A stretch of DNA of 64,000 bases from an uncultured Chloroflexia bacterium (GCA_963833225.1 CAWHXD010000006.1:32001-96000), one strand, 5' to 3'; numbered from the stretch's first letter, positions 17,364 through 34,927 are shown. The notes: a model not told the origin generated them from the sequence alone. Program-made: numbers and translations.

Positions 17364-18452
17364 ATGCCGCCCGTCGCCGTCCTCATCCTCGCGCCCGCGC
17401 TCTCGCCCGGTGCGGGCCTGCTCGCGCGCGGCCTCGACGAGGCCCACACGACCCTCGCCGAGCATCACCGGCGGGGGTTCCGCGCGGCCGGCGCGGCCGA
17501 GGTCGTGGTCCGCCGCGAGCCGCCCGACGATACCCCATTCGGGGCACGCCTCCGGCGGCTGGCCGGCGGGCTTCGCCCGGGCGGGCTGGTGGTCCTGGGA
17601 GCCGGGTCGATCCCACTGGCAACGGCGGCCGACCGGCGTGGCCTCGTCGAAGCTGCGGCAGCCGATGCGCCCGGGGCGCTGGTCAACCACCGCTACTCCG
17701 CCGATGTCCTGGCCATCGCCCTGGCACAGACCGCGCTCCGGGACGTGCCGCCGGACCTGCGTTCCGACAACGCCCTTCCCCGCTGGCTCGCCGAGGTGGC
17801 CGGCGTGCCGGTGAGGGACCTGCGAGCGCGGCGCCGACTGGCGATGGACGTGGACTCGCCGCTTGACCTGCTGCTGCTCGAAGGGGCGCGGGGAGCCCCG
17901 GACCTGCCGCTCCCCGGTGACCTCGAGGCGGATCCGGTGCGGGCGCAGCTCGCCCGGCTGCGCGCGCTGGCCCGCGACCCGGGCGCCGAGCTCCTGATCG
18001 CCGGCCGGTCGTCGGCGGCGGACCTGCGCTGGGCGGAGCGCTACACCCGCTGCCGGACCCGGGCCCTGCTCGAGGAGCGGGGGATGCGCACGGCGTCGGC
18101 AGGCGTGGCCGTGGGGCGTCCCAACCGACGTCCGGCGAGAAGCGCTCTTGGGCTGCTCCTGGACACCTCCGAGCCGGGATCGCTGGGGAGAATCGTTGGG
18201 GAGCTGTGCGACGGGGCGCTCATCGACAGCCGCGTCCTCATCGCCCACCGGTACGGCGCCGACGAGGCGGGCTGGCCGGTGCCGGAGGACCGGTTCGCGA
18301 GCGACCTCCTGCTGCCCGATCGGATCCGCGACCCGTGGCTGCGCGACCTCACCACCGCCGCCGCCGAGGCCCAGGTCCCCATCCTGCTCGGCGGGCACAG
18401 CCTCGTGGGGCCGGGGCTGCGGCTCGCGCTCGGGCCACGGGCGCATGGATAG
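17364..18452 (+). CDS. Hypothetical protein with weak CofC/MobA-like nucleotidyltransferase features
   Basis: Coherent ORF with N..YSAD, DN.LP, MDVDSPLDL, EERGMR, DSRVL.AH, EDRFASDL, LGGHSLV; the family call rests mainly on the DVDSP.DL motif. Confidence 0.6.
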   Translation: MPPVAVLILAPALSPGAGLLARGLDEAHTTLAEHHRRGFRAAGAAEVVVRREPPDDTPFGARLRRLAGGLRPGGLVVLGAGSIPLATAADRRGLVEAAAADAPGALVNHRYSADVLAIALAQTALRDVPPDLRSDNALPRWLAEVAGVPVRDLRARRRLAMDVDSPLDLLLLEGARGAPDLPLPGDLEADPVRAQLARLRALARDPGAELLIAGRSSAADLRWAERYTRCRTRALLEERGMRTASAGVAVGRPNRRPARSALGLLLDTSEPGSLGRIVGELCDGALIDSRVLIAHRYGADEAGWPVPEDRFASDLLLPDRIRDPWLRDLTTAAAEAQVPILLGGHSLVGPGLRLALGPRAHG

Positions 18453-19680
18453 GGACCCGGCGATCGATCCCGCCGAGCCGCCTCTCGCCGTCGCCGGGCA
18501 CCGTCGCCACAGCCTGCCCGATCCCGAGGCCGTCGGCGAGGACGCCGAGCTGCTGGCAGCGATCCGGGCGGAGATCGCCGAGCACGGGCCGATCACCTTC
18601 GCCCGGTTCATGGAGCGGGCCCTCTACGACCCGGGACACGGCTACTACCGCCGTCCGCTGGCCGGCCCCGGGCTGGCCGGCGGCGACTTCCTGACCGCCC
18701 CCGAATCCCATCCGATCTTCGGGGCCGCCCTCGGTCGGCTGGTCGAGGAGGCGTGGCGGGCGATGGGCCGCCCGGCGCCGTTCACGATCACGGAACCGGG
18801 AGCCGGCTCGGGAGCGCTGGCGGCCGGGCTCCTGCGCGGGTTGCGGGACCTGGGCTCGCCGCTGTTCCCAGTCGTTCGCTACCGGCCGGTCGAGGTGGAG
18901 ACGGCGCGTCTCGACACGCTCCGCGAACAGCTCGCGGCCGAAGGCCTCGACGACCACCTGGTGGCCGACCCCGATGAGGCGCCACGCACCGCCGGAGCCG
19001 TGATCGCCAACGAGGTCCTTGATGCGCTGCCCGTCCACCGGGTCGTCACGCGCGGCGGCAGCCTGCACGAGCTGCTGGTCGCGGCCGACACGGACGGGAA
19101 CCTCGTGTGGCACGAGGCGGAGCCCACCACGCCGGCCCTTGCGCGGCGCCTCGCGGCCGAGCAGGTGACGCTCGCCGACGGCGAGGTCACGGAGGTCTGC
19201 CTGGCGCTCGACCGCTGGCTCGCCGAGACAACGGCGCTCGTTTGGCGCGGCGTCGTGATCGTGGTCGACTACGCGGCCGAGCCCGGCGAGCTCCACGGGG
19301 CGTCGCACCCCACGGGGACGCTCCGCACGTTCGCGCGGCACGCCGTTGGCGCCGACCCGTTCCGGCATCTCGGGCGGCAGGACCTCACCGCAACCGTGGA
19401 TCTCGCGGCTGTCAGGCTTGCCGCGGCGGCCGCCGGCCTGACCCCGATCGGCGAGACGACCCAGGCGGAGCTGCTGGCACGGGTCGCCACGAGCGACCTC
19501 ACGGACACCTACGTCCGCCGCCCGGGCGCCACGCTCCAGGACGCGCTCGATCTCCGCTCGGCGGTCGCCCGGCTGATGGACCCACGCGGGATGGGGGGGT
19601 TCCGGGTCATGGTGTTCGGCGAGGGGCTGGACGAGCCGCTGTCGCTGCCGTCGCTCTCCCCGGTCCGCCGCCCGGGCTGA
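18445..19680 (+). CDS. SAM-dependent methyltransferase, MidA/NDUFAF7 family
   Basis: GPITFARFMERALY.P..GYY, GDFLTAPE, EPGAGSG.LA, ANEVLDALP, DY, QDLTA.VD, LMDP.GMG..F. Confidence 0.9.
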   Translation: MDRDPAIDPAEPPLAVAGHRRHSLPDPEAVGEDAELLAAIRAEIAEHGPITFARFMERALYDPGHGYYRRPLAGPGLAGGDFLTAPESHPIFGAALGRLVEEAWRAMGRPAPFTITEPGAGSGALAAGLLRGLRDLGSPLFPVVRYRPVEVETARLDTLREQLAAEGLDDHLVADPDEAPRTAGAVIANEVLDALPVHRVVTRGGSLHELLVAADTDGNLVWHEAEPTTPALARRLAAEQVTLADGEVTEVCLALDRWLAETTALVWRGVVIVVDYAAEPGELHGASHPTGTLRTFARHAVGADPFRHLGRQDLTATVDLAAVRLAAAAAGLTPIGETTQAELLARVATSDLTDTYVRRPGATLQDALDLRSAVARLMDPRGMGGFRVMVFGEGLDEPLSLPSLSPVRRPG

Positions 19681-19842: not shown

Positions 19843-20214
19843 GTGACCGGGATCTGGTACGTCGTCGGGTTCGTTTTCGCCGGCACCCTGTTCGTCTTCG
19901 GGACGATCGGGCTCGCTTGGCTGATCTCCCACCGCACCCGTGGAGACGAGCACAAGGGCTACCCCTACGAGTCGGGCATCGACACCTACGGTGACACCCA
20001 CGCCCGCTTCGGCATCAGCTTCTACATCTACGCCCTGATGTTCGTCGCCTTCGACATCGAGGTGATCTTCATCTTCCTGTGGGCCTTGATCTTCACGAAC
20101 CCTGACCTGCCGCTCACCCCGGCCGCCCTGTTCATCACGATGCTGATCTTCGTGGGCATCCTGCTGTTCGGGCTCGCGTATGCCTGGCGCAAGGGGGTCC
20201 TGACGTGGCGATGA
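19843..20214 (+). CDS. nuoA: NADH-quinone oxidoreductase subunit A
   Basis: [29 protein letters not shown]. Confidence 0.95.
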
Positions 20215-20969
20215 CCCCCGACGGACCGGAGACGGTCGGGGGCCTGGGCGTCGAGCCGGGCGACGGCACCCAGGCTCGGTCGGACCAGCCCGGGCGGGAT
20301 TCCGCGGCGCTGGTCACCCCGGCCGCCAGGGACGTGATGGCCCCCATCGTCGTGGCCAACACGCTGTGGACGTCGGACAGCCCCGGCGCGTATGCGAGCA
20401 CGGCCCCCGCCTACACGCACCTGGAGGCATTCCACAAGGGCGACCTCGAGCTCGCGGACACCGCGCGCTGGGGTGCGCTCGAGGTGATCCCGACCAAGGC
20501 GGACCTGATCGTCGACCTGATCCGGATGAACAGCCTGTGGCCGCTGCTCTCGGGCCTGGCCTGCTGCGCCATCGAGATGATGTCCGCGGCCACCTCCAAG
20601 AACGACATGGACCGCTGGGGCATGTTCCCGTTCCGCGCCAGCCCCCGCCAGGCCGATGTGCTGATCGTGGCCGGCACGCTCACCACCAAGATGGCCGGGC
20701 CGCTGGTCCGCCTCTGGGAGCAGATGCCGGAGCCCAAGTGGTGCGTCGCGATGGGCGACTGCACCTGCTCGGGCGGCCGCTACAAGCGCAGCTACTCCAC
20801 CATCGAGGGCATCGACCGGGTGATGCCCGTCGACGTCTACGTGCCGGGCTGCCCGCCCCGTCCCGAGGGTCTCATCTACGGGATGATGAAGCTGGGCCAG
20901 CTGGTCAAGGAACGCCGCGGCCACTGGCCGGACCGGCCCATCGGGCCCAACGTGCCGACGGACGTCTAG
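20211..20969 (+). CDS. nuoB: Complex I subunit B (N-terminally extended)
   Basis: [42 protein letters not shown]. Confidence 0.95.
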
Positions 20970-20971
20970 CC

Positions 20972-21520
20972 ATGGACCGATCGCTGCGTGCACGCCTCGA
21001 GAAGCGCTTTGCGGACAAGGTCACGGGACCCGTCCGGCAGCGCCACGACGAGACCGAGCTCCGGATCGGCGCCGCGGACCTGACCGAGGTCATGACGGCC
21101 CTCCACGACGAGCCGGACCTGGACTTCGGGGTCCTCGCCGACCTCGCGGGCGTGGACACAGGCGCCCACATGCAGGTCGTGTACCACGTGTGGTCCGCGA
21201 AGACGCCGGACTGGCTGCGCGTGATCGCGGACGGCCTGCCGCGCGACAACCCGCGGATCGCGACCCTCACCGGCCTGTGGCCGGGCGCGGAGTGGATGGA
21301 GCGCGAGACCTACGACATGTTCGGGATCATCTTCGAGGGCAACCGCGACCTGCGGCGGATCTACATGCCCCCCGATTACACGAGCTTCCCGCTGCGCAAG
21401 GACTTCCTCCTGCCGGACGACGCGGCGCGGTCACCGGGGGGTGGCGTCCGGCACGTGGAGCGGGCGCCTGCCTCCACGCAGGCAACCGATCCCGCCGCCC
21501 ATCGCACGGTGAAGGCGTAG
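20972..21520 (+). CDS. nuoC: Complex I subunit C
   Basis: L.DLAGVD, LWPGAEWMERETYDMFGI.FEG..DLRRI, PLRKDF. Confidence 0.95.
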   Translation: MDRSLRARLEKRFADKVTGPVRQRHDETELRIGAADLTEVMTALHDEPDLDFGVLADLAGVDTGAHMQVVYHVWSAKTPDWLRVIADGLPRDNPRIATLTGLWPGAEWMERETYDMFGIIFEGNRDLRRIYMPPDYTSFPLRKDFLLPDDAARSPGGGVRHVERAPASTQATDPAAHRTVKA

Positions 21521-21522
21521 CC

Positions 21523-22767
21523 GTGACCACCTTTGGCGAGCCCATCGGCCAGCACGCGTCGGCGGACGACCCACGGATCATGCTGGACAACCAGATCGGG
21601 GCGTTCGAGCAGGTCCCGCCCTACCCGCCGCGCACCGAGCGCGAGGCCGAGTTCTACTCGCTCCGCGACGGCGAGATGTTCGTCAACATGGGCCCCCAGC
21701 ACCCGTCGACCCACGGCGTGCTCCGCGTCGTGCTCAAGATCAACGGCGAGCAGGTGGTGGACCTGGACCCGGTGCTGGGCTATCTCCACCGGGGCGTGGA
21801 GAAGCTGTGCGAGAACAGCGACTACCACCACATCATCAGCCAGGTCGACCCCCTCGAGTACGTGAGCTCGCTGTTCAACGAGTGGGCGCCAGTGATGGCG
21901 TTCGAGAAGCTGCTCGACGTGGAGGTCCCGCGGCGGGCCGAGTACATCCGCGTGCTCACGGGCGAGCTCCTCCGGGTCAGCAGCCACGCCCTGTTCCAGG
22001 GCTGGATGGCGCTCGACCTCGGCGGCCTCACGCCGATCCTGTACAGCTTCATCGAGCGCGACGAGATCGTGGAGATGCTGGCGGCGATCACCGGCCAGCG
22101 GATGCTGTTCAACTACTTCCGGATCGGCGGCGTGAACGGCGACCTCAACCACGAGTTCATGTCCCGCCTCGGTGACTGGATGAGCCGGGCCGCCGTGCAG
22201 CACGAGGCGAACATCGGGCTGCTCAACGAGAACGAGATCTTCGTCCGGCGCATGCGCGGCATCGGCCGGGTGGACGGCGACACCGCGCTGCGGATGGTCG
22301 TCACCGGACCCAACCTGCGCGCCTCCGGCGTGCCATACGACGTCCGCCGCGCGCATCCGTACAGCGTGTACCCGGAGCTGGACTTCGACATTCCGGTCCG
22401 GGGCACCGGCCCCGAGGGCGGCGATTCGCTGGACCGCTACCTGCTCCGGCTCGACGAGGTCAAGCAGAGCCTGCGGATCATCGACCAGTGCCTCCACAAC
22501 ATGCCCGACGGGCCGATCATGGCCCGCCTGCCGCGCCTGCTCCGCCCTCGACCGGGTCGCGCCTGGGCGGCCGTCGAGGCTCCGCGTGGCCTGTACGGCA
22601 CCTACGCGATCAGTGACGGCACGGACCAGCCGTTCCGGATGAAGATCCACGACCCGTCGTTCGTCAACCTGCAGCTCGTCGGGATGCTCATGAAGGGCAA
22701 CCTGCTCGCGGACACGATGGCCGTGATGGCGAGCCTGGACCCGGTCATGGGCGGGATCGACAAGTGA
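21523..22767 (+). CDS. nuoD: Complex I subunit D
   Basis: NMGPQHPSTHGVLR, GYLHRGVEK, YFRIGGV, EAPRG, SLDPVMGGIDK; no NiFe CxxC ligands. Confidence 0.95.
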   Translation: MTTFGEPIGQHASADDPRIMLDNQIGAFEQVPPYPPRTEREAEFYSLRDGEMFVNMGPQHPSTHGVLRVVLKINGEQVVDLDPVLGYLHRGVEKLCENSDYHHIISQVDPLEYVSSLFNEWAPVMAFEKLLDVEVPRRAEYIRVLTGELLRVSSHALFQGWMALDLGGLTPILYSFIERDEIVEMLAAITGQRMLFNYFRIGGVNGDLNHEFMSRLGDWMSRAAVQHEANIGLLNENEIFVRRMRGIGRVDGDTALRMVVTGPNLRASGVPYDVRRAHPYSVYPELDFDIPVRGTGPEGGDSLDRYLLRLDEVKQSLRIIDQCLHNMPDGPIMARLPRLLRPRPGRAWAAVEAPRGLYGTYAISDGTDQPFRMKIHDPSFVNLQLVGMLMKGNLLADTMAVMASLDPVMGGIDK

Positions 22768-24197
22768 CCGCGCTCAACCGCTCGCTGGGCAGCCTGACGA
22801 CCGTCGGCAAGGTCGTCATCCCGCTGCTGCTGCTGGTGTTCGTGGTCGGGCCGATCCTGACCGTGCTCGGCGCGATCTACGTGCTGCCGGTCGTGGTCGA
22901 CATCGTGGGCTCGAACCTGGGCATCGTCCGGTTCGTGGTCGCGATCACGGCGATCCTGCTGTTCAGCATCCCGGCCGCGTTCATCATCATCTACATGGAG
23001 CTGAAGGTCATCGCCTTCATGAACCTCCGCGTCGGCCCGGACCGGGTTGGCCCCAAGGGTGCCGCCCATTCGCTGGTCGCGGGCCTCAAGGTGCTGACCA
23101 AGGAGGACTTCAGCCCGGCCAACGCGGACCGCCTGGTGTTCACCTGGGCGCCCGTGATCGTGTTCCTGACCGCGGTGATGACGTTCATGGTCATCCCGTT
23201 CGGACCGGGGCTCGTGAACCCCGAGACGGGCCGCATGGAGGGCCTGGTCGGCCAGGACTTCAACATCGGGCTGCTGTACCTGTTCGCGGTGGGCGGCATG
23301 ACCGTGATCGGCCTGCTGCTCGCCGGCTGGTCCAGCTTCAACAAGTACTCGCTCCTCGGGGGCCTCCGCTCGGCGGCGCAGGCGGTCTCGTACGAGATCC
23401 CGCTCACGCTGTCCGTGGTCGGGCTGATCCTGCTGGCGGGCACGATGAGCGTCACCGGGATCGCCCAGCAGCAGGGAGGCTGGTTCGCCAACTGGTTCGT
23501 CTTCCGGCAGCCGCTGGGTGCGCTGATCTTCTTCATCGCCGCCACCGCTGAGGCGAACCGGACCCCGTTCGACCTGACCGAGGCGGACTCCGAGATCGTC
23601 GCCGGGTTCGCGACCGAGTACTCCGGGATGCGCTTCGGCTTCCTGTTCTTCGCCGAGTACGTGAACGTGTTCATCGTCTCGGCCCTGATCGTGACCCTGT
23701 TCTTCGGGTCGTGGAACGCCCCGGTGGACCTCAACTCGCTGCTCGCCTGGATCAACCCGTCACTGCAGAGCTGGTTCGGCTTCACGCTGCTGCCACCCAC
23801 GGTGGCCCTCGACCCGGGCAGCCTGGGGATGGGCCTGCTGCTGCTGGCCCTGGCCGCCCCGGTGGTCCTGACGCTGGTGTTCGCCGTGCCGTTCTACCTG
23901 CTTCGCACCTCGCGGCCCGGGTGGCAGGCGCTGCTGTTCGGGTTCGTCCTGTTCAACGTCGTCGCCGGCGGGGCGGCGTTCACCCTGGCCTGGATCGGCT
24001 GGGACTGGGTCGCCGGCCTGGTGTGGTTCATGATCAAGTCGTTCATCTTCGTGTTCGTGTTCGTGTGGATGCGCGGCACGTTCCCGCGAGTCAGGATCGA
24101 TCACCTGATGGGCTTTGCGTGGAAGTGGCTGCTGCCGGCCGCGCTCCTCAACCTGTTCCTGACCGCCGCGGCGATCGTCGTGGTGAAGAGCCTGTGA
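22764..24197 (+). CDS. nuoH: Complex I subunit H, extended (477 aa)
   Basis: RVGPDRVG, KVLTKED, NKYSLLGGLRSAAQ.VSYE, AEANRTPFDL.EA.SEIVAG..TEYSG, RGTFPRVR.D. Confidence 0.93.
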   Translation: MTALNRSLGSLTTVGKVVIPLLLLVFVVGPILTVLGAIYVLPVVVDIVGSNLGIVRFVVAITAILLFSIPAAFIIIYMELKVIAFMNLRVGPDRVGPKGAAHSLVAGLKVLTKEDFSPANADRLVFTWAPVIVFLTAVMTFMVIPFGPGLVNPETGRMEGLVGQDFNIGLLYLFAVGGMTVIGLLLAGWSSFNKYSLLGGLRSAAQAVSYEIPLTLSVVGLILLAGTMSVTGIAQQQGGWFANWFVFRQPLGALIFFIAATAEANRTPFDLTEADSEIVAGFATEYSGMRFGFLFFAEYVNVFIVSALIVTLFFGSWNAPVDLNSLLAWINPSLQSWFGFTLLPPTVALDPGSLGMGLLLLALAAPVVLTLVFAVPFYLLRTSRPGWQALLFGFVLFNVVAGGAAFTLAWIGWDWVAGLVWFMIKSFIFVFVFVWMRGTFPRVRIDHLMGFAWKWLLPAALLNLFLTAAAIVVVKSL

Positions 24198-24204
24198 GCA
24201 TTCG

Positions 24205-24864
24205 ATGACAGCCATCCCCGGCATGGGCCTCGTGCGCGGCATGGGACTGACCCTGCGGCGGTTCTTTGCCCCCAAGGCCACCATCAAGTGGCCCGAGCAG
24301 CACGCCGATGTCGCCCCCAAGTTCCGCGGCCGGCTGCAGCTGCTCTACGACGAGCACGGCACGCTCAAGTGCGAGACGTGCTTCCAGTGCGCGCAGGCCT
24401 GCCCCATCGAGTGCATCGACATGGGCGGGGTGGACACCAAGGGCCGGTTCCACGTCCACTGGGGCCCCCCCGAGACCTACGGCGAGCGCCGCGAGGAGTC
24501 CGCGATCCGCCGCTCCGGGCGCCCGGTGGCCGACACGGCGTACGAGCGCTTCGAGGGCATCGACCTCCAGCCGCTGGACGTGATCCTGGAGGCACACGAC
24601 TACGACCCCAGGGCGATGCTGGCGATCCTGGAGGAGACCCAGGCCGAGTACGGCTACCTGCCCGTCGCCGCCCTCAAGCACATCTCCCGGGTCACGGGCG
24701 CGTGGTACGCGATGATTTACGGGACCGCGACCTACTACCGACACCTGCGGTTCGAGCCGCCCGCGGTGGAGGCGCCCGCCGCCGGCACCGCACAGGTCGC
24801 CGCCGAGGCCGCCTTCCGCTCCGCGCTCGACGCCTCCCTTGGCTACGGGGGGCACGCGAACTAG
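24205..24864 (+). CDS. Fusion of NuoI N-terminal half (one CxxCxxCxxxCP) and NuoE N-terminal helical domain
   Basis: G..LTLRRFF...ATIKWPE......KFRGRL.L......KCETCFQCAQACPIECI, then MLAILEETQAEYGYLP..AL..IS......IYGTATYY..LR; no 2Fe-2S cysteines. Confidence 0.85.
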   Translation: MTAIPGMGLVRGMGLTLRRFFAPKATIKWPEQHADVAPKFRGRLQLLYDEHGTLKCETCFQCAQACPIECIDMGGVDTKGRFHVHWGPPETYGERREESAIRRSGRPVADTAYERFEGIDLQPLDVILEAHDYDPRAMLAILEETQAEYGYLPVAALKHISRVTGAWYAMIYGTATYYRHLRFEPPAVEAPAAGTAQVAAEAAFRSALDASLGYGGHAN

Positions 24865-24865
24865 G

Positions 24866-26206
24866 ATGACCGACTTCCTCACGACTCCCGCGGGCTGGCC
24901 GAGCGTCCTCCTGGCACGCGCGGCGCAGCTGGCCGCGGATCCGATGGACCTCGACGCCGCGGTGCGAGCCGGCGCGTTCGAGGGCCTCCGGAAGGCCGTG
25001 CGCGATCTGGGTGGAACCGGCACCATCGCGACGCTCGCCGCCGCCGGGCTCCGGGGTCACGGCGGCGCCGGCTTCCCCACCGCCGAGAAGTGGCGTGCGG
25101 CCGCCGGGCAGCCCGCGGCCCAGCGCTACGTCATCGCCAACGGCTACGGGGCGGATCCCGCCGTTCACACCGACCAGGCGCTGCTCGCCGCGGACCCGTG
25201 GAGCGTCATCGAGGGCCTCGCGATCGCCGCCTTCTCGATCGGCGCGACGGAGGCGATCCTCGCGGTCCGTGCCGACGATCCGTCGCTCGTGACGATGCTC
25301 GAGGGGGCTGTCCTCGCGGCCGAGGAGGCGGGCTTCCTGGGCGAGGATGCCGCGGGCTCCGGCCACCCGATCAGGATGACCGTGCGGCCCGTCCAGGGTG
25401 CCTACATGCTGGGCGAGGAGACGGTCCTGATCAAGGCGCTCGAGGGCAGGCGCGGCCAGCCGGACCAGCGGCCGCCGTACCCCACCGAGAAGGGCCTGTT
25501 CGACAAGCCGACTGTCGTCAACAACGTCGGGACGCTGGCCGCGGTCCCGTGGATCGTGGTCAACGGCGGCGAGGCGTACGCGGCCATCGGGTCGGCATCC
25601 AACGCCGGCACCGCGCTCGTCCAGCTCCGCGGCCCGGCCGGCGCGGGCATCGCCGAGATCCCGTTCGGGACTCCGCTCCGTGCCCTCGTTGATCTCGTCG
25701 GGGGCGCCGGCAAACGGACGCTCAAGGCGATCCTCGTGGGTGGACCGACGGGGGGCCTCCTGCCAGCCGACCTCCTGGACACGCCCTACGAGTTCGACGC
25801 GCTGCGGGAGGCCGGCGCCCACGTTGGCTCCGGGTCCGTGGTCATCGCCGACGACCGGGCCTGCATCGTGGACCTCGCCCGGCTGCTCACGCAGTTCTCC
25901 GCCGACGCCGCCTGCGGCAAGTCCATCCCGTGCCGCATCGGCCTGCGCCGCCTGTACGAGATCGGCGACCGGATGACGAGCGGCGTGGCCAGGCCCACCG
26001 ACCCGGCGCTCCTGGTGGACCTCGCCCACGACATCACCGCGTCCGCCCTGTGCGACCACGAGCGCCTGGCCACCCGGCCGTTCGCCAGCGCGATGCGATA
26101 CTTCCGTCCCGAGCTCGATGACCACCTCCTTCGCTCCATCTGCCCGGCCGGCGTGTGCACGCCGATCGCGGTGGGTGCCGGTGCGACCGCAGCAGGATCC
26201 CGCTGA
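24866..26206 (+). CDS. NuoF/HydB-like flavoprotein subunit, divergent
   Basis: GLRGHGGAGFPTAEKW, GAYMLGEET.LI.ALEG.RGQP...PPYP, PTVVNNV.TL, GGPTGG, CGKSIPCRIG, H....CPAGVC. Confidence 0.88.
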   Translation: MTDFLTTPAGWPSVLLARAAQLAADPMDLDAAVRAGAFEGLRKAVRDLGGTGTIATLAAAGLRGHGGAGFPTAEKWRAAAGQPAAQRYVIANGYGADPAVHTDQALLAADPWSVIEGLAIAAFSIGATEAILAVRADDPSLVTMLEGAVLAAEEAGFLGEDAAGSGHPIRMTVRPVQGAYMLGEETVLIKALEGRRGQPDQRPPYPTEKGLFDKPTVVNNVGTLAAVPWIVVNGGEAYAAIGSASNAGTALVQLRGPAGAGIAEIPFGTPLRALVDLVGGAGKRTLKAILVGGPTGGLLPADLLDTPYEFDALREAGAHVGSGSVVIADDRACIVDLARLLTQFSADAACGKSIPCRIGLRRLYEIGDRMTSGVARPTDPALLVDLAHDITASALCDHERLATRPFASAMRYFRPELDDHLLRSICPAGVCTPIAVGAGATAAGSR

Positions 26207-28917
26207 TGGCCGACCTCATCATCCGCCCCGAGGACGCCGAGACCCCGGACAGCGCGCCCGTGCCCGAGAACAGCCCGGCCGCCTACGAGCGCCTTCGCGA
26301 GGTCCGCCCGGACGCAAAGCTGCCCGCCGGCTGGGACACGATCACGCCTCGCGAGGACACCCTCGCCGAGCGCCTGATCACGACCCAGAGCCCGCAGCGG
26401 CCGCAGAGCACGCCGCGGATCCGGCTGGAGGTCGACGGCCGCGTCGTCGAGGGCTTCGAGGGCCAGACGATCCTCGAGGTCTGTCGCGACAACGGGATCG
26501 AGATCCCCACCCTGTGCTACGAGCCCAAGCTCCCGGGCTTCGGTGCCTGCCGGATGTGCGTGGTCGAGGTGGAGGGCGAGGAGCAGCCGCCGATCTCCTG
26601 CTCCCGCGTCGCCGAGCCGGAGATGAAGGTCCAGACGCAGACCGACGAGCTGCGCCGGCTCCGGAAGACCAGCCTCGAGCTGATCTTCTCGGACCACAAC
26701 GCCTACTGCCTGCCGCCATGCCAGAACAAGTGCCCCAGCCACATCGACATCCCGGGCTTCCTCAAGGCCAACGCCGAGGCCAGCTGGACGGAGTCGGTGC
26801 GGATCTTCAAGCGCACGATCCCGTTCCCCAGCGTGCTCGGCCGCGTCTGCCCCGCCCCGTGCGAGGAGCACTGCCGGCGGGACGAGGTGGACGAGGCGAT
26901 CGCCATCCGCGACAGCCACCGCTACGCGGGCGACCAGGTCATCAAGGCGATGCTCGACGATGGCGTCGATCCGCCGCTGCCGTTCGAGAAGCAGGCTCCG
27001 TCCGGCCGCCGCGCCGCCGTGATCGGGTCCGGCCCGGCCGGCATGAGCGCCGCGTACTACCTGCTGCTCGCCGGCCACGACGTGACCGTGTTCGAGCGCG
27101 ACCCGGCCCCGGGCGGCATGCTCCGCTACGGCATCCCGCAGTACCGCCTGCCCAAGGTCGAGGTCCTCGAGGCGGAGTACGAGTCCGTCACCCGGCTCGG
27201 CGGCAAGATGCGCTGCAACATGGAGCTGGGCAAGGACTTCACGCTCGACGACCTCCAGCACCAGGGGTTCGACAGCGTCGTCATCGCCATCGGCTGCTAC
27301 GACACCAACAAGCTGGGCATCCCCGGACGAGGACGCCGACGGCGTCATCGACGGCCTGGAGTACCTGCGCACGGCCACGCTGGGCCTGCCGTACCCGGGC
27401 CACGAGGGCACCCGGGTGGTCGTCGTGGGCGGCGGCTTCACCGCGATGGACTGCGTCCGCACCTCGGTCCGCCAGGGCGCAGGCGAGGTCACGCTCGTCT
27501 ACCGCCGCGACATGAAGGACATGCCGGCGGCCTCGGAGGTTCACGAGGCGATCGAGGAGGGCGTCACCGCCATCTTCCAGGCCGGGCCGACGCGCGTCAT
27601 CAAGGACGAGGAGACCGGCAAGACCACGGGCGTCGAGTTCATCCGGATGAAGCTCGGCGAGCCCGACGCGTCCGGCCGGCGCCGCCCCGAGCCGGCGGCC
27701 GGCACCGAGTTCACGATCCCCTGCGACCGCGTCCTGCTGGCCATCGGCCAGGGACCGGACCTGCGCCTGGTTCGGCCCCGGCAACGAGGGCCTGAGCGCC
27801 ACCCGGAACCGCCGGCTCCAGGCCGATGCGGTCACGTTCGAGACCGGCCGCCCGGGCGTGTTCGCGACCGGCGACGTCCGGATCGGCGCCGCGACCGTGG
27901 TCCAGGCCATCGCGGAGGGACGGCGGGCCGCCTACGCCGTGGATGCCTACCTGAAAGGCAACGACCTGTCGGCGATCCGGACCCGCCAGACCCTCGCCGA
28001 GCCGCAGCCGGAGTTCCTCTCCATCGTGCCGTTCACGGGCGAGATCAAGGAGCCCCGCTACCGGCTGAAGGCGCTGGAGGCGGAGGAGCGCAACCACAGC
28101 TACACCGAGTACGAGATCCCGTACACCCGCGACGAGGCCGTCGCGGAGTCCACCCGCTGCCTCCAGTGCACCTGCGAGGCGATCGGGTTCTGCGACCTGC
28201 GCCGGCTGGGGATCGAGTACGGGACGACGCTCAAGACCCTGGAGAAGACCTTCCACCAGGGGGCCGGGTACCGCTCGGTGACCGAGAACCGGTTCACCGG
28301 CGTCAACCACGACTACGTCCGGGACGACTCGCACGCGTTCATCCTGCGCGAGCCCTCCCGGTGCATCGACTGCGGCCGCTGCGCCAACGTCTGCGCGGAG
28401 GTCGTGGGTGCCGCCTGCTACGACTTCATGCGGATCGGCTTCGACACCCTGGTGACGACGCCGCTCGACATGAGCCTCAACGACACGCCCTGCGTGTCCT
28501 GCGGCCGCTGCGCGGAGACGTGCCCCACGGGCGCGCTGATGCCCAAGCCGCGCGTCCTCCAGAAGTACGAGGTCGACGAGAGCCGCTGCATCCTGTGCGG
28601 CATCTGCGTCGACGCCTGCCCCTATGACGCCGTCCGCGACAGCGACCAGTTCGAGCTCAGCCACACGTCCCGCGAGGAGCCAGAAATCGACCTCCTCGCG
28701 CTGGCCTCGATCGAGCGCGAGACGGAGATGAGCTACATCCGCCGCGAGCGGGACTGGGCGGAGCGTGCACGGGCCGAGGGCCGGATCCTCGACGATGCCC
28801 GGCTGCTCCCCGTCCTTCCCGCCTCGCTCGCGGGCGGACGCGGGGAATGGGAACGGGAACGGGAACGGCGCCCGGCTGGGTGCCGGGAACGGGGCCGGCC
28901 ACGCCAACGACGGCTGA
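26206..28917 (+). CDS. NuoG-like Fe-S protein with inserted GltD/NfnB-type FAD/NAD(P)H module and C-terminal NuoI-like half (frameshifted in this sequence)
   Basis: Joined from ORFs 26155-27795, 27416-28627 and 27858-28973: IPTLC...GACRMC...SC (2Fe-2S), PPCQNKCP, GRVCPAPCE..C, GSGPAG, GGGFTAMD..YRR, FATGD, RCLQC.C, three CxxCxxCxxxC motifs; indels near 27325, 27765 and 28832. Confidence 0.85.
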
Positions 28918-28926
28918 GAGGGACGC

Positions 28927-29473
28927 GTGACGCTGCCAGAGACGATCCCGCTGCTCGGGCTCGGATGGAATGACCTGCTGTTCCTGACCTTCGCGGGCAT
29001 CATGGTCGGGTCGGCGCTGCTGGTCGTCCTGATGCGGGACATCATCCGCTGCGGCCTGGCCATGATCATCTGCTTCGCCGCGCTGGCCGGGCTGTACGTG
29101 TTCGCCGGTGCCACGGTCGTCGCCGCGGCCCAGGTGCTGGTCTACATCGGCGCGATCAGCGTGCTCGTCCTGTTCGCGATCATGCTGACCCAGACCAAGT
29201 CCGGCCCCGCCTCGCTGGTGTTCCAGACCCAGGCCTTCCCGGCAGCGATCGCGGCCGCGGTGCTCGCGATGCTGATCGCGGTCGTGGTCGCGGCGACCGA
29301 CTGGCCGGGCTGGCCATCGCTCGGCAGGCTGGTCGAGAGCTCCGCCGCGGACGTGGCCAACAGGCTGTTCGCCAAGTTCATGCTCCCGTTCGAGGTGGTC
29401 AGCGTCCTGCTCCTCGCGGCGGTCATCGGCGGGGTGTTCATCGCCAAGCGCGAGCGGGGAGGTGAGCGACTGA
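28927..29473 (+). CDS. nuoJ: Complex I subunit J
   Basis: AAAQVLVYIGAISVLVLFAIML, LPFEVVSVLLL.A.IG; read in frame with nuoK here, probably because of an indel. Confidence 0.88.
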
Positions 29474-29805
29474 TGCTCGCCTTCCTCGACAACATCTCCG
29501 CGAGCCTCGACGCGTACCTCGTCCTGTCGGGCCTGCTGTTCGCGATCGGGTCGTTCGGGTTCCTCGCCCGCCGGAACGCGATCTCGATGCTGATGTCCAT
29601 CGAGCTCATGCTCAACGCGGTCAACCTCGCGGTCATCTCGTTCGGCGCGTTCACCCTCAAGCTCAACGTGGACGCATCCGTCATCGCGCTCATCGTCATG
29701 GCGTCCGCGGCCGCGGAGGCGACGGTTGGCCTGGCGCTCGTGATCGCGATCTTCCGCAACAAGAAGACGCCGCTCGTCGACGAGTACGACGCGATGAGCC
29801 AGTAG
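29473..29805 (+). CDS. nuoK: Complex I subunit K
   Basis: RRNAI.MLMSIELMLNAVNL, AAAEA.VGLALVI; own GGAGGTGA RBS and TGATG junction. Confidence 0.9.
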   Translation: MLAFLDNISASLDAYLVLSGLLFAIGSFGFLARRNAISMLMSIELMLNAVNLAVISFGAFTLKLNVDASVIALIVMASAAAEATVGLALVIAIFRNKKTPLVDEYDAMSQ

Positions 29806-29817
29806 GCGGGGATCGAG

Positions 29818-31816
29818 ATGTACGAGACGCTGATCCCGCTCATCCCGCTGCTCCCCATCCTGGGCTTCGCCTTCACGGCCCTGTTCGGGCGACGGCTGCA
29901 GCTCCGCTTCGGGCGCACCGCGGCGGAGATCGTGCCCCTGGCGCTCGTCGCGGCGTCATGGGTGATCGCGATGGTCGTCGTGGTGCCGGCGCTCACCCAC
30001 GCCGAGCCGTTCGGCGAGCACGGCCTGGACGTCAATCTCTGGACCTGGATCCCGGCCGGCGACTTCACGGTCCAGATGGGCTTCCACGTCGACGCCCTCA
30101 CCGCCGCCCTGCTGATCGTGGTGACCACGATCGGGATGCTGGTCCACCTGTACTCGGTCGGGTACATGGCCCACGACAAGGGCACCTGGCGGTTCTTCGC
30201 CTACCTCAACCTGTTCATGTTCTCGATGCTCCTGCTGGTGCTGGCCAACAACTGGCTGCTCGTGTTCGCCGGCTGGGAGCTGGTCGGCCTGTCCTCGTAC
30301 AGCCTGATCGGGTTCTGGTACCACAAGCGCTCGGCCGCCCTGGCCGCCAAGAAGGCGTTCATCGTCAACCGCGTGGGCGACGTGGGCTTCGCGCTCGGGA
30401 TCATGGCCATCTTCGTCAACACCGGGACGATGAACATCCAGGACTCGCTGGCGAAGCTGACCACGTGAGGGCGCCTCGTTCCCGATCCCGGTCACGATCG
30501 TCGCGCTGCTGGTGTTCGCGGGCGCCATGGGCAAGAGCGCCCAGTTCCCGCTCCACGTCTGGCTGCCGGACGCGATGGAGGGCCCCACCCCGGTGTCCGC
30601 CCTCATCCACGCGGCGACGATGGTCAACGCCGGCGTCTACCTCGTCGCCCGCGCCAACCCGCTGTTCGCCCACGCGTCGGACGCGATGGTCGTGGTGGCG
30701 GCGATCGGGATCTTCACCGCGATCCTCGCCGCCTCGATCGCGTTCACGCAGACCGACATCAAGCGCGTGCTCGCGTACTCGACGCTGTCCCAGCTGGGCT
30801 ACATGTTCGCCGCCCTCGGCGTGGGCGCCTACACGGCGGCGATCTTCCACCTCATGACCCACGGCTTCTTCAAGGGCCTGCTGTTCCTGGGGTCCGGCTC
30901 GGTGATCCACGCGGTCCACGAGGAGCAGGACATGAACCGGATGGGCGGCCTGTGGCGGAAGATCCCGATCACCCACTGGACGATGCTCGTCGGCTCGATC
31001 GCCATCGCGGGCATCCCGCCCCTGGCGGGCTTCTTCTCCAAGGACGAGATCCTGGGCGAGGCGTTCAAGTTCGGCTTCACCTGGGTCTGGCTCATCGGCC
31101 TCGTGGTCGCGGGCATGACGGCGTTCTACATGTGGCGCCTGATGGGCAAGACGTTCTACGGCGAGTCCCGCGTGGACCCGCACACCGAGCCCAAGGTCCA
31201 CGAGTCGGCCTGGCAGATGACGGTGCCGCTGATCCTGCTGGCGATCCCGGCCGCCCTGCTGGGTCTGGCGCTCACCTGGGGTGGTCTGCCGCTCACCCGG
31301 AGGGCACGGGGCTGCTGACCGGCTGGCTCGAGCCCGTGTTCGCGGCGTCCGAGGAACATCTGCACGGCGCCAAGGAGGCCTACCAGCTGTTCGGCGCCAT
31401 CGACGGCGTCCTGATCATCGCCAGCGTGGCGGTGGCCACCATCGGGCTGGTCGTCGGCTGGGCCCTGTTCGGCTTCTTCAACCGACGCGGCCGACAGGCG
31501 ACCGTGGACGGCATCGTCGCCTCCAACGGGGCCACCCGGTTCCTGTACCGCGCCACCCTCAACAAGTGGTGGTTCGACGAGATCAACGACCTGCTGTTCA
31601 TCCGGATCGGCGGACGCGTCGCCGCCGATCCTGTGGTGGTTCGACCGCACCATCGTCGATGGCACCGTCAACGGGGTGGGCACCGTCGTCCGCGGCGCGG
31701 GCGGCGGGCTGCGGCAGATCCAGACCGGCCGCGTCCAGAACTACGCGCTGGGCATCGCGATCGGCCTGCTGGTGATGGCCGGCTCGTTCCTGCTGATCGT
31801 GGGGCAGTCCCGATGA
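29818..31816 (+). CDS. nuoL: Complex I subunit L (frameshifted in this sequence)
   Basis: [70 protein letters not shown]; indels near 30465, 31300 and 31628. Confidence 0.92.
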
Positions 31817-33411
31817 CCGGCCTCGACGGGCTGCCGCTCGTGACCCTGGTGACCTTCCTGCCGGCGCTCGGCGCGCTCGCCGTCGCCATCACGCCGACGT
31901 CCCGGCCGAACGTCGCGCGCTACACGGCGCTGGGGTTCGCGCTGGCGGCATGGGTCGTCTCGCTGGTGATGCTGGCCGGGTTTGACGCCACTGCGGCCGC
32001 GACCAATCCCGATGCGGCCTTCCAGTTCAAGGAGTCGTTGGCCTGGATCCCGGCGTTCGGGATCAACTACGCGATGGGCGTCGATGGGCTGTCGATGGCC
32101 CTGGTGGTCCTGACCACGACCCTGACCTGGATCAGCATCCTCGCCTCGTTCAGCCCCATCGGACACCGCGTGAAGGAGTACATGGTCTCCTTCCTGGTGC
32201 TCGAGGTGGGCATGATCGGCGTGTTCGTCGCCCGGGACCTGTTCCTGTTCTACATCTTCTGGGAGCTGGTCCTGGTCCCGATGTACCTGATCATCGGCAT
32301 CTGGGGTGGCAAGAACCGCATCTACGCCACGATCAAGTTCGTCCTGTACACCCTGGTCGGCTCGCTGCTGATGCTGGTCGCGATCCTGGCGACCGCGTTC
32401 ACCTACCAGGCCGCACAGGCGGCCGCCGGCTCGGCCACGCCCTGGGCGAACGCGTTCGACGTCGCGACGCTCACCGACGCTGCCGCGGGTGGCCTGTTCG
32501 GAGGCACGTTCGGCTTCCTCGCCTTCGGCGCCTTCTTCCTCGCGTTCGCGATCAAGGTCCCGATGTTCCCGTTCCACACCTGGCTCCCCGACGCCCACGT
32601 CGAGGCGCCCACCGCCGGCTCGGTGATCCTGGCCGGCGTCCTGCTCAAGCTGGGCGGCTACGGGTTCATCCGGTTCGCGCTGCCGCTGTTCCCCGAGGCC
32701 GCGCACACGTGGGCCCCGCTGATCATCGTCCTGAGCCTGATCGGGATCATCTACGGCGCGATCGTGGCGCTCGTCCAGCCGGATCTCAAGAAGCTGGTCG
32801 CGTACTCGTCGGTCAGCCACATGGGCTTCGTGACCCTGGGCATCTTCGTGTTCCAGCAGCAGGGCATGCAGGGCGCGATCCTGCAGATGATCAGCCACGG
32901 CCTCATCACGGGCGCGCTGTTCCTGCTCGTGGGCATCATCTACGAGCGGACCCACGACCGGACGATCGCCAAGATGGGCGGCCTGGGCAGCGCGACGCCC
33001 GTGTACGCCGCCGCGTTCGGGTTCTTCGTGTTCGCGTCGGTTGGCCTGCCCGGCCTGTCAGGGTTCGTGGGCGAGTTCCTGACCCTGGTCGGCACCTTCG
33101 TCGCGATCCCGGCCGCCGCCGTCGTGGCCACGTTCGTGATGATCCTTGCCGCCGGCTACCTGCTGTGGATGTTCCAGCGGGTGGCGTTTGGCGAGCTCAG
33201 CGAGTTCCTCAAGGGCCTGGGCAGCCACCTGACCGACATGAAGCCGGTCGAGGCGCTCACGCTCGTCCCGCTGGGCGCGCTGGTGGTGGTGTTCGGCCTG
33301 TGGCCGGGCCTCATCCTCGACCTGATCGCCGGCTCCGTGAGCGCGGCCCTGGCCCCCGTCCAGGCGTTCGTCCAGAATGCCGGGCCCATCGCCCTCGGCC
33401 TGTGGCGGTAG
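31813..33411 (+). CDS. nuoM: Complex I subunit M
   Basis: GVDGLS, FYIFWE..LVPMY, AIKVPMFPFHTWLPDAHVEAPTAGS, AYSSVSHMG, GLPGLSGFVGE. Confidence 0.95.
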   Translation: MTGLDGLPLVTLVTFLPALGALAVAITPTSRPNVARYTALGFALAAWVVSLVMLAGFDATAAATNPDAAFQFKESLAWIPAFGINYAMGVDGLSMALVVLTTTLTWISILASFSPIGHRVKEYMVSFLVLEVGMIGVFVARDLFLFYIFWELVLVPMYLIIGIWGGKNRIYATIKFVLYTLVGSLLMLVAILATAFTYQAAQAAAGSATPWANAFDVATLTDAAAGGLFGGTFGFLAFGAFFLAFAIKVPMFPFHTWLPDAHVEAPTAGSVILAGVLLKLGGYGFIRFALPLFPEAAHTWAPLIIVLSLIGIIYGAIVALVQPDLKKLVAYSSVSHMGFVTLGIFVFQQQGMQGAILQMISHGLITGALFLLVGIIYERTHDRTIAKMGGLGSATPVYAAAFGFFVFASVGLPGLSGFVGEFLTLVGTFVAIPAAAVVATFVMILAAGYLLWMFQRVAFGELSEFLKGLGSHLTDMKPVEALTLVPLGALVVVFGLWPGLILDLIAGSVSAALAPVQAFVQNAGPIALGLWR

Positions 33412-33421
33412 GAGTGCACCG

Positions 33422-34927
33422 GTGACCTTCCCCGACATCGTCACGATCGCGCCGTTCATCGCCGCGATCCTGCTCGCGATCGCGATCCTGGTCGTCGACT
33501 TCGTGTTCCCCGGCAGCAAGTGGCCGGCCCTGGTCACGACGTTCGCGGGCCTCGCCGTGGTCGCGGTGCTGGTGGTCATCACGGGCCAGACGGTCTCCGG
33601 GGCCTTCCCCGCGGGTGCCCAGGGCGCGTATGTCGTGGACCCGCTGACCACGTTCCTCCAGCTGCTGTTCATCTCGATCGTGGCGCTCACCATGGCGTTC
33701 GCGCCGGACTATCTCGAGGAGCGCGGCCTCCCGGTGCCCGAGTTCGCGGCGACGATCGTGTTCGCGATGTCGGGCGCGATGCTGCTCGCCGCCTCGGGCG
33801 ACCTGCTGGTCCTGTTCCTGGGCCTGGAGCTCATGGTCCTGCCCGGCTACGTGCTGGCCGGGTACCACAAGAGCGACGGGTACAGCACCGAGGGCGCGAT
33901 CAAGTACTTCCTGCTCGGCTCCTTCTCGAGCGCCATCTTCCTGTTCGGGCTCGCGTTCGTGTGGGGGATCACCGGCGAGACCAACATCGGGGCGGTGGGC
34001 GCGATCCTGACCCAGATCACCGCCGGCACGGCGCCGCTGTCCCCGGCGCTGGGCCTGGGGCTCGCGTTCATGACCACCGGGGTGGCGTTCAAGATCGCGG
34101 CGGTCCCGTTCCACTACTGGACACCCGACGCCTACCAGGGCTCGCCGACCCCGGTCACGGGCTACCTGTCGGTCGGCCCCAAGGTCGGGGCGTTCGCGCT
34201 GATCATCCGCCTGTTCGCCGACGGGCTCGGCAGCCTGGCCGTGGACTGGACCATCGTGATCATCGTCCTGGCCGCGCTCACGATGACCCTGGGCAACCTC
34301 GTGGCGCTGACGCAGGACAACGTGAAGCGGATGCTCGCGTACTCGTCGATCGCCCACACCGGGTACATGCTGGTCGGCTTCGCGGCATTCGGCGCCGGGC
34401 AGCTGAGCGGCATGGAGGGGCTGCTGTACTACGGCGCGGCGTACGCGTTCATGAACCTCGGCGCGTTCGGCGTCATCGCCGCGCTCCAGCGGCGGACGGG
34501 CATCACCTCCAACCTCTCGACGTTCGCCGGCCTGGTCCGGCGCGAGCCGGCGCTCACCTGGCTGATGTTCCTGTTCCTGCTGTCGCTGACCGGCATCCCG
34601 CCCACCGCCGGCTTCTTCGGCAAGCTGACCATCATCGTGGCCGCGGTCGACGCCGGCGCCCCGGTTGCCGGGGTCGCGGGCAACCCGTGGATGTACGGCC
34701 TCGCGGTGCTGATGATGCTCAACGCGGCCGTCGCGGCGTTCTACTACCTGCGGGTGGCGGTCTACATGTTCATGCGCGAGCCGGACGGCGAGCTGGAGCG
34801 GCTCCCGCACAGTCGCCTGGTGTGGACCGGTCTTGCGGTGAGCACCGTGCTCACGCTCGCGCTGGGCGCCTTCCCGGGTCTGCTGCTCGGGTTCGTGGGG
34901 ACCGCCGCGGCGGCAGTCATCCACTAG
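33422..34927 (+). CDS. nuoN: Complex I subunit N
   Basis: EGAIKYFLLGS, FKIAAVPFH.WTPDAYQG.P, KRMLAYSSIAH.GY, GIPPTAGF.GK, FYYLR. Confidence 0.95.
   Translation: MTFPDIVTIAPFIAAILLAIAILVVDFVFPGSKWPALVTTFAGLAVVAVLVVITGQTVSGAFPAGAQGAYVVDPLTTFLQLLFISIVALTMAFAPDYLEERGLPVPEFAATIVFAMSGAMLLAASGDLLVLFLGLELMVLPGYVLAGYHKSDGYSTEGAIKYFLLGSFSSAIFLFGLAFVWGITGETNIGAVGAILTQITAGTAPLSPALGLGLAFMTTGVAFKIAAVPFHYWTPDAYQGSPTPVTGYLSVGPKVGAFALIIRLFADGLGSLAVDWTIVIIVLAALTMTLGNLVALTQDNVKRMLAYSSIAHTGYMLVGFAAFGAGQLSGMEGLLYYGAAYAFMNLGAFGVIAALQRRTGITSNLSTFAGLVRREPALTWLMFLFLLSLTGIPPTAGFFGKLTIIVAAVDAGAPVAGVAGNPWMYGLAVLMMLNAAVAAFYYLRVAVYMFMREPDGELERLPHSRLVWTGLAVSTVLTLALGAFPGLLLGFVGTAAAAVIH

Follow-up and report, generated by a model that had tools for sequence, protein, structure and literature searches.

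A complex I operon of Candidatus Limnocylindria in which NuoI is encoded as two half-domains joined to an Nfn/Stn-like cassette

NuoI/TYKY is one of the 14 core subunits of complex I and is taken to be unchanging from bacteria through to mitochondria. The locus described here is a complex I (nuo) operon in which NuoI was found as two complementary half-domains on two different proteins, designated X and Z, which are encoded on either side of a NuoF-like protein, Y. The operon lies in a 64,000-nucleotide stretch of DNA from an uncultured bacterium, referred to as the window (genome G000, contig C6, positions 32001-96000; CAWHXD010000006.1 of GCA_963833225.1). The genome comprises 3.89 Mb in 20 contigs and is 86% complete, and the record titles of close relatives point to Candidatus Limnocylindrales/Limnocylindria, Chloroflexota. 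The gene order nuoA-B-C-D-H-X-Y-Z-J-K-L-M-N, already given in the original prediction made from the sequence of the window, was seen in the open reading frame listing, in the Pfam and NCBIfam matches and in tblastn searches against relative G024. The core subunits A, B, C, D, H, J, K, L, M and N of respiratory complex I therein form one cluster, with nuoA-D as the quinone module and nuoJ-N as the membrane arm.

Several described systems resemble this locus in part. The 11-subunit complex I (NUO11), found in Chloroflexi among others, has an intact nuoI and, in the available text of its description, no dedicated input module in its operon (Moparthi and Hagerhall 2011, PMC3144371). The present operon shares with NUO11 the core A, B, C, D, H, J, K, L, M, N and the lack of canonical nuoEFG, and differs from it in the split NuoI and the presence of an input module in the operon. 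In Nuo-Bfu, reported from Deferribacteres, Proteobacteria, Planctomycetes and Nitrospirae, 14 subunits A-N including nuoI are combined with a BfuABC input module; this complex is predicted to confurcate NADH and ferredoxin, and no GltD/NADPH domain is mentioned for it in the available text (Schut et al. 2022, PMC9304861). With Nuo-Bfu the present operon shares a Bfu-related module placed amid the nuo genes, whose electrons are predicted to go to a proton-pumping quinone reductase; unlike in Nuo-Bfu as described there, NuoI is here split and fused, and parts of the bifurcation machinery are lost. The mbx-like operons of Thermotoga and proteobacteria have a gltD-related flavoprotein in the place of NuoI (Degli Esposti 2015, PMC4758237). 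The likeness lies in the coupling of a GltD-type NAD(P)H flavoprotein, in the position of NuoI, to a core resembling complex I, whereas the mbx-like product, compared here by its description, in the available text of which no split NuoI appears, is a ferredoxin:NADP-type relative of Mbx and does not reduce quinone.

The cassette itself has the same set of parts as NfnABC of Caldicellulosiruptor saccharolyticus (9BOV/9BP5) and StnABC of Sporomusa ovata (8OH5), namely a NuoE-like subunit, a NuoF-like subunit and a subunit combining [2Fe-2S], GltD and HydA-like domains. Compared with these enzymes, X is without the C1 [2Fe-2S] domain, Y is without the N-terminal part and B3/B4, Z carries the C-terminal half of NuoI instead of an FdhF-like domain, and the genes lie within a nuo operon. 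The architecture had been thought undescribed, and our search of the literature likewise turned up neither a split NuoI nor a nuo operon containing a GltD-bearing module, the supplements of PMC9304861 and PMC4758237 lying outside that search.

NuoI on two proteins

At the level of the genes the split of NuoI is confirmed: both halves are present, and they are complementary. Residues 12-77 of X match positions 1-65 of the 121 positions of the NuoI model TIGR01971, and residues 9-73 align with residues 23-87 of a solved TYKY chain (7ar7_I). A linker of about 45 residues joins this part to a NuoE/NfnC-like domain, for which residues 126-186 match the NuoE family PF01257 at only positions 3-63 of 145; the match ends at position 63, and the thioredoxin-like [2Fe-2S] domain is absent. 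The NuoE-like part also matches solved NfnC (9n5u_C, residues 11-66; 9bov_C, residues 19-89). Exactly one CxxCxxCxxxCP motif was found in each of 91 X proteins, and none of its residues C56, C59, C62, C66 and P67 varied among 16 sequences, which represent four families. These matches agree with the earlier description of X as starting like NuoI, holding one ferredoxin motif and then changing to the N-domain of NuoE. The sampled class was Ca. Limnocylindria, with families designated f1 to f5. The region of the C1 [2Fe-2S] domain is truncated in the genus of the window, keeps CxCxxC without the second cysteine pair in f2 and f4, and has no cysteine in f3. A 12-residue insertion after the cysteine motif was also seen in X of f3.

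The domains of Z follow in the order [2Fe-2S], GltD-like FAD (flavin adenine dinucleotide)/NADPH part with two [4Fe-4S] clusters, HydA/HoxU-like clusters and the C-terminal half of NuoI. The Pfam and NCBIfam scans of window Z were run on three frame pieces, and residues 232-274 of the last piece match TIGR01971 positions 71-113. Three motifs are present at the C terminus (28362-28394, 28491-28526 and 28587-28622). The first two and the segment between them align motif for motif with solved NfnA (9bov_A) and also match PF22117 (Fer4_Nqo3) and models of HoxU and [FeFe]-hydrogenase. Beyond them, the C terminus aligns with residues 99-144 of TYKY (7ar7_I) and residues 93-141 of Paracoccus NuoI (8qby_I); polyferredoxins outscored the NuoI chains here only by adding up many repeats. 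All 16 cysteines of the C-terminal part are invariant in 76 of 76 sequences, as are C244, C247, C250, C254, P255, E266 and R272; F265 falls in the class of at least 90% among the 76 and is invariant in the 16-sequence alignment. Intact Z has 848-898 residues in G006, G024, G028 and G025, and in G018 it is a single open frame of 875 residues from stop to stop. The end of Z had been claimed as the second half of NuoI, and both the model and the solved chains bear this out, complementing X.

Four features of canonical NuoI/Nqo9/TYKY (TIGR01971) were found here: the N-terminal segment, two CxxCxxCxxxCP motifs, the hairpin and the FE...R tail. Unlike in canonical NuoI, the halves are on two polypeptides, about 4 kb apart, and the two CxxCxxCxxxCP motifs with the NuoI-specific N terminus are complete only when X and Z are combined. 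Residues 6-87 of X align with residues 2-83 of a canonical NuoI from another Chloroflexota genome (locus L123), and Z resumes at the following ERYARIFDVNLLRC segment, which corresponds to the return strand before the second motif. By this alignment, the break falls inside the hairpin between the two motifs, with neither overlap nor gap.

In a six-frame TIGR01971 search of the whole genome, the X and Z pieces were the two best matches (E 1.7e-12 and 9.3e-11), and chance was therefore excluded. They score 48.5 and 42.9 bits on two open reading frames, both below the curated cut-off of 113.05 bits. An intact NuoI over this cut-off was found in 0 of 11 genomes (G000, G006, G024, G018, G028, G025, G044, G055, G041, G052 and G049), in line with the earlier claim that intact nuoI is lacking. 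The cut-off is strict, since only 7 of 14 control genomes pass it, and it is the layout of the hits rather than the cut-off that carries the argument. The same split was found in five relatives of f1/f2 and in f3, f4 and f5 genomes, and the two NuoI pieces were the top two matches in 9 of 10 relatives, with G018 as the exception, where they rank second and below. In G018, a genome that is 8% contaminated, a 137-residue NuoI-like frame (C7:69027-69314; positions 9-118; 53.7 bits) ranks first. The next-best small match in G000 (C19:687685-687942) adjoins a 2-oxoacid:ferredoxin oxidoreductase alpha gene, and a slightly better-scoring one (C19:110518-110709) lies in a 481-residue open frame and covers model positions 41-105 only. 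One nuoH and one nuoD were found genome-wide.

Identity and distribution of the cassette

The cassette had been taken for an input of the NuoE/NuoG type. This part of the original prediction needs correction, as the nearest solved relatives of Y and Z are chains of Nfn, Stn and Hyd enzymes. Residues 55-787 of the intact Z from G006 match C. saccharolyticus NfnA (9bov_A, 4-699) with E 3.7e-157 and also align with StnC (8oh5_C, 4-701) and with NfnA 9n5u_A. The best PDB matches of Y were 8a6t_B (HydB), 8oh5_B, 9bov_B and 9n5u_B, with E of about 1e-98 to 1e-100, whereas true NuoF matched more weakly (E 1e-66 to 1e-73). By these alignments the cassette is closest to the NfnABC/StnABC transhydrogenases (Bfu family) and not to NuoEFG, and the module would descend from, or share ancestry with, the bifurcating Nfn/Stn enzymes.

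The alignment of Y covers residues 160-573 of the 630 of HydB and ends at CPAGVC. Y is without the N- and C-terminal cluster domains of HydB/NfnB/StnB, including the B3/B4 ferredoxin domain, and no further cysteine motifs are present in it. No FdhF-like domain was found in Z, which at the lengths given above compares with 1172-1178 residues for StnC/NfnA and whose alignment stops at residue 787; molybdopterin families were absent from the Pfam scan, and the C-terminal half of NuoI occupies the place of that domain. As far as the available texts of PMC10482914 and PMC11829005 describe them, Nfn/Stn enzymes have a GltD-like FAD/NADPH site with a cluster chain leading from it to flavin mononucleotide (FMN), a bifurcation site made up of B1-FMN-C1, and B3/B4 clusters that pass electrons to ferredoxin. 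Because the C1 [2Fe-2S] cluster and the B3/B4 domain are lost here, the module is probably a non-bifurcating input module that oxidises NADH and NADPH. The [4Fe-4S] (B1) motif of Y, ACGKSIPCRIG (25900-25940), has its second cysteine replaced by serine. At this position Ser or Thr was found in f1, Thr in f2 and Ala in f4 (CGK[S/T/A]xPC), while the full CGxCxPC motif was found in f3 and in the homologue of genome G607. The B1 cluster may have a non-cysteine ligand, be a 3Fe cluster or have been lost. It was also considered whether the NADPH site could do away with the need for a proton-translocating transhydrogenase; this was rejected, since PntB (PF02233) was present in 5 of 5 genomes tested.

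Within the class, 300 genomes were searched for X at E<=1e-5, the tallies including 11 unpublished genomes, and matches were found in 88 of 91 genomes of f1, 12 of 12 of f2, 82 of 92 of f3, 99 of 103 of f4 and 2 of 2 of f5. X is full-length in 23 of the 24 genomes of the genus, the remaining one (G008, 72% complete) giving only a weak match, and in 15 of 16 sister-family genomes of 1.0-1.4 Mb that are 84-93% complete. The X/Z pair also occurs in streamlined genomes of 1.1 Mb. Among 80 public loci, from many assemblers, Z is one open reading frame in 60, frame-split in 5 and cut by a contig end in 14, with L081 as an exception; it is a single frame in 60 of the 65 loci covering it. Of the 66 loci extending far enough to show it, 65 have the order X-Y-Z, and the full operon A-B-C-D-H-X-Y-Z-J-K-L-M(-N) also occurs in f2 and f4 genomes. 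On these grounds misassembly of the junctions was dismissed. Locus L081 (8020-12648), from a Limnocylindrales isolate, has X, Y and then a few residues resembling the start of Z; downstream are unrelated genes on the opposite strand (ferredoxin, HesB-like and ThyX-like by eye). The cause is a rearrangement or else a chimeric join.

The layout H-X-Y-Z-J is that of f1, f2 and f4. For these families the cassette does lie between nuoH and nuoJ, inside nuoI as had been proposed, but this placement does not extend to f3, where a nuoB-nuoD-X-Y-Z cluster (L117-L119) was found, nor to other Chloroflexota (f29, f10 and f47), where nuoB'-X-Y-Z stands apart from the membrane genes. Outside the class, in a 401-genome sample of the phylum (six genomes unpublished, none of them among the 15 with a match), an X-like protein covering both parts was found in at least 15 genomes among the matches listed. 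In G607, G378 and G434, nuoB'-X-Y-Z has no membrane subunit nearby, and the NuoI-half matches were confirmed for G607 only; the loci are L120 (7233-12277; G607), L121 and L122. Both G607 and G466 have a separate nuoC'-nuoD'-nuoH' cluster, which is followed by a valyl-tRNA synthetase gene (L124 7812-11255; L125 9616-13043). G607 also has a canonical 14-subunit operon including intact nuoI. Pairwise identities of NuoD, NuoH and NuoF place the canonical G607 operon, the window and the stand-alone C'D'H'/B'XYZ genes at roughly equal distances from one another and assign them to no lineage. Together, nuoB'-X-Y-Z and nuoC'-D'-H' could encode an NAD(P)H:quinone oxidoreductase that is small, resembles complex I and lacks antiporter-like subunits; they could also encode an alternative peripheral arm.

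The proposed assembly and competing explanations

We consider it likely that this operon, the sole complex I operon found, encodes NuoI with its N6a/N6b clusters as two half-domains that staple X, Y and Z to the core. The half in X contains the NuoH-contacting N terminus, the first cysteine motif and the first hairpin strand, and is fused to the N-terminal domain of a NuoE/NfnC-like protein, a domain which in NfnABC makes up a stable platform together with the NuoF-like subunit. The half in Z contains the return strand, the second cysteine motif and the FE...R tail, placed behind the HydA-like domain of an NfnA/StnC-like subunit. The two halves would then form one 2[4Fe-4S] fold, shared by X and Z, in which each cluster is bound by three cysteines of one polypeptide and a fourth of the other. 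Through this fold the input module would be attached to NuoB/NuoD/NuoH. NADH would be oxidised at FMN in Y and NADPH at FAD in the GltD-like part of Z, and both inputs would pass through the Fe-S chain of Z to N6a/N6b, N2 in NuoB and quinone. The cluster branch that is a dead end in StnC/NfnA, leading towards the FdhF-like domain, would here be the exit to quinone. A linkage of the cassette to the quinone module was seen in three layouts, H-X-Y-Z-J, nuoB-nuoD-X-Y-Z and nuoB'-X-Y-Z.

The following points weigh against this proposal. The shared fold is supported by no structure. A complex prediction of X residues 1-100 with the Z C-terminal part (140-300) and four 4Fe-4S clusters, run with no controls, gave 0.29, 0.32 and 0.28 against a mark of 0.32, which speaks on neither side. 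An AlphaFold2 model of the Z C-terminal part built from 76 sequences was unusable, with a mean pLDDT (predicted local distance difference test) of 44 and a pTM (predicted template modelling score) of 0.28. The NuoI model also aligns the second and third motifs of Z as a complete core, and sequence alone leaves the pairing unfixed. In f1, f2 and f4, Y is short of one B1 [4Fe-4S] cysteine, which makes the NADH branch uncertain. The strictness of the NuoI cut-off and the unrelated genes that follow X and Y in L081 belong here as well. Finally, at two of the frame breaks considered below few contigs of other samples lack the letter: that at 27327 is missing only in one contig each of runs X2 (18.6/137.2) and X8 (3.56/7.95), and that at 31395 only in X8 (5.3/5.3), with 0/7.22 in X1. 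The source reads were not found among the public runs, none of which contains half of the words; the best share was 0.26, and RNA runs had shares of 0.07-0.11.

The pairing of the motifs gives rise to an explanation that we regard as unlikely, in which motifs 2 and 3 of Z make up a complete 2[4Fe-4S] NuoI-like domain and X contributes only the NuoH-contacting N terminus and an extra cluster site, which would pair with motif 1 of Z or be incomplete. It draws on the alignment of TIGR01971 positions 40-111 with Z of G607 in one stretch (60.5 bits), on a BLASTP alignment in which canonical NuoI covers both motifs of window Z at 34% identity with a 13-residue gap, and on the Pfam dicluster domain Fer4_7, which spans both. 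The 32-residue spacing fits a clostridial-type ferredoxin, for which motif spacing follows a known rule. On the other hand, homology to solved NfnA, with its own two motifs in the same places, extends without a break over motif 1, motif 2 and the 30 residues that separate them, and HoxU/[FeFe]-hydrogenase models match this part too. With these two motifs aligned to the solved pair, motif 3 would be left as the partner of X, as in NuoI; under the alternative pairing, X would be left with a lone invariant four-cysteine motif, and the NuoI-specific hairpin is cleanly divided between X and Z.

Frame changes were the second matter to be weighed, and frames were judged by tblastn against the intact genes of G024. 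Z is not a continuous open frame in the window, a point absent from the original prediction: +1 breaks near 27327, 27766 and 28835-28845 divide it into four segments. Once the last of these breaks is allowed for, the stop at 28917 that had been given as the end of Z is the true one. Three breaks divide nuoL into four segments, and nuoJ and nuoK read as one 292-residue frame (noted for 29458-31630, which also covers nuoL segments). Both Z and nuoL are intact in relatives. Short-read contigs were available from four public runs of other samples, some of them 98-99% identical to the window. The extra base at 27766 is missing in all four runs at full depth, the letter at 30466 is missing in the contigs of X10 (5.98/5.98 depth), and that at 31628 in X1 (3.9/3.9) and X2 (9.88/16). 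Since relatives are intact and contigs of close relatives are without the extra base at most sites, the breaks in Z and nuoL are most likely assembly consensus errors. That they are real, and that those in Z, nuoJ/K and nuoL mark a decaying cluster of pseudogenes with complex I non-functional in this strain, is very improbable. Such decay would fit the clustering of all seven operon frame changes between 27.3 and 31.8 kb, with none in nuoA-Y or nuoM-N, the want of source reads placed on the window, and position 27327, where most of the read depth keeps the letter. It is opposed by the segments themselves, each free of internal stops and 75-91% identical to the intact G024 proteins, by the 98-99% identical contigs without the extra base at 27766, 30466 and 31628, and by the lack of a second nuoH or nuoD in G000. 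The five frame-split Z loci also speak against it, as all are MFD metagenome-assembled genomes, which we take to be nanopore assemblies, and are broken at differing positions.

It is hardly credible that X-Y-Z only happens to be located in the nuo operon and, instead of replacing NuoI, acts as a soluble transhydrogenase of the Nfn/Stn kind or as an NAD(P)H:acceptor oxidoreductase, as its best solved relatives (soluble transhydrogenases) and the genes of f29, f10 and f47 away from membrane-subunit genes might suggest, because X starts with the NuoI-specific N terminus ahead of the first motif, nuoB is adjacent or in the same cluster in every layout, no other NuoI was found to connect the NuoG-type clusters with N2, and both the ferredoxin-reducing B3/B4 domain and the C1 cluster are missing.

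Operon features and implications

Table 1. Features of the nuo operon and its upstream neighbour, in positions of the window
Feature	Position	Strand	Remarks
NDUFAF7/MidA-type S-adenosylmethionine (SAM) methyltransferase	18445-19680	+	PF02636, E 2.3e-46; directly upstream of nuoA
nuoA	19843-20214	+	Pfam PF00507; single frame by tblastn against intact G024 gene
nuoB	20205-20969	+	Pfam PF01058; single frame by tblastn against intact G024 gene
nuoC	20972-21520	+	single frame by tblastn against intact G024 gene
nuoD	21523-22767	+	sole PF00346 match in genome; single frame by tblastn against G024
nuoH	22764-24197	+	sole PF00146 match in G000, E 2.5e-101
X	24205-24864	+	219 residues; NuoI N-terminal half and NuoE/NfnC-like N-terminal domain
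X CxxCxxCxxxCP motif (CETCFQCAQACP)	24370-24405	+	sole such motif in X
Y	24866-26206	+	NuoF-like FMN subunit; PF01512, PF10589
Z	26206-28917	+	[2Fe-2S], GltD-like FAD/NADPH, HydA/HoxU-like cluster domain and NuoI C-terminal half
Z motifs 1 and 2 (CIDCGRCANVC ... CVSCGRCAETCP)	28362-28526	+	HydA/NfnA-type two-cluster domain
NuoI C-terminal half (KYEVDESRCILCGICVDACPYDAV....FELSHTSRE)	28542-28679	+	motif 3 at 28587-28622; TIGR01971 positions 71-113
nuoJ	28927-	+	Pfam PF00499
nuoK	29473-29805	+	Pfam PF00420
nuoL	29818-~31810	+	four frame segments; tblastn against intact G024 gene
nuoM	31813-33411	+	tblastn frame against intact G024 gene
nuoN	33422-34927	+	tblastn frame against intact G024 gene

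The stop of X is at 24864 and the start of Y at 24866, and the stop of Y and the start of Z share one base at 26206. The G+C content of the window is 71%. The methyltransferase upstream of nuoA belongs to a family that we take to consist of complex I assembly factors. The NuoB translation contains the N2-binding cysteines (CC...C...CP), the N2-ligating motif of NuoB, and NuoB was also seen to have an N-terminal extension of about 100 residues ahead of its conserved domain (window 20205-20520; PF01058 from residue 120). Four further NuoF-like genes were observed in G000 (C7:200040, C7:204308, C17:313456 and C19:113632), at least the one on C17 adjoining NuoE-like and ferredoxin-like frames. The evidence suggests that these further genes encode soluble NAD(P)H-linked enzymes.

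Going beyond the split itself, we propose only tentatively that Limnocylindria and the nuoB'-X-Y-Z Chloroflexota have a respiratory complex I in which both NADH and NADPH are oxidised through a domesticated Nfn/Stn module, attached by a natural heterodimeric 2[4Fe-4S] fold in which N6a, and likewise N6b, draws its ligands from two polypeptides. If true, a core Fe-S subunit of complex I would for the first time have been found in two pieces, and two separate half-domains would make up one ferredoxin fold in a living organism. Lineages with stand-alone nuoB'-X-Y-Z and nuoC'-D'-H' may use these parts as a small NAD(P)H:quinone oxidoreductase that lacks antiporter-like subunits. X has been annotated by pipelines as 'NAD(P)H-dependent oxidoreductase subunit E', 'ferredoxin' or 'hypothetical protein', and metabolic reconstructions would therefore score such genomes as being without nuoI.

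NuoI was supposedly fixed, and here a lineage has no single-protein NuoI while both halves are strongly conserved. The Fe-S wire of complex I, on the reading proposed here, can be built across subunit boundaries, and the locus would offer a natural system for the assembly of a 2[4Fe-4S] fold from halves. The physical fusion links the bifurcating Nfn/Stn (Bfu) family to respiratory complex I and bears on how input modules were acquired. Limnocylindria are abundant in soil and freshwater, and for this group the finding raises direct respiration of NADPH as a testable physiological question.

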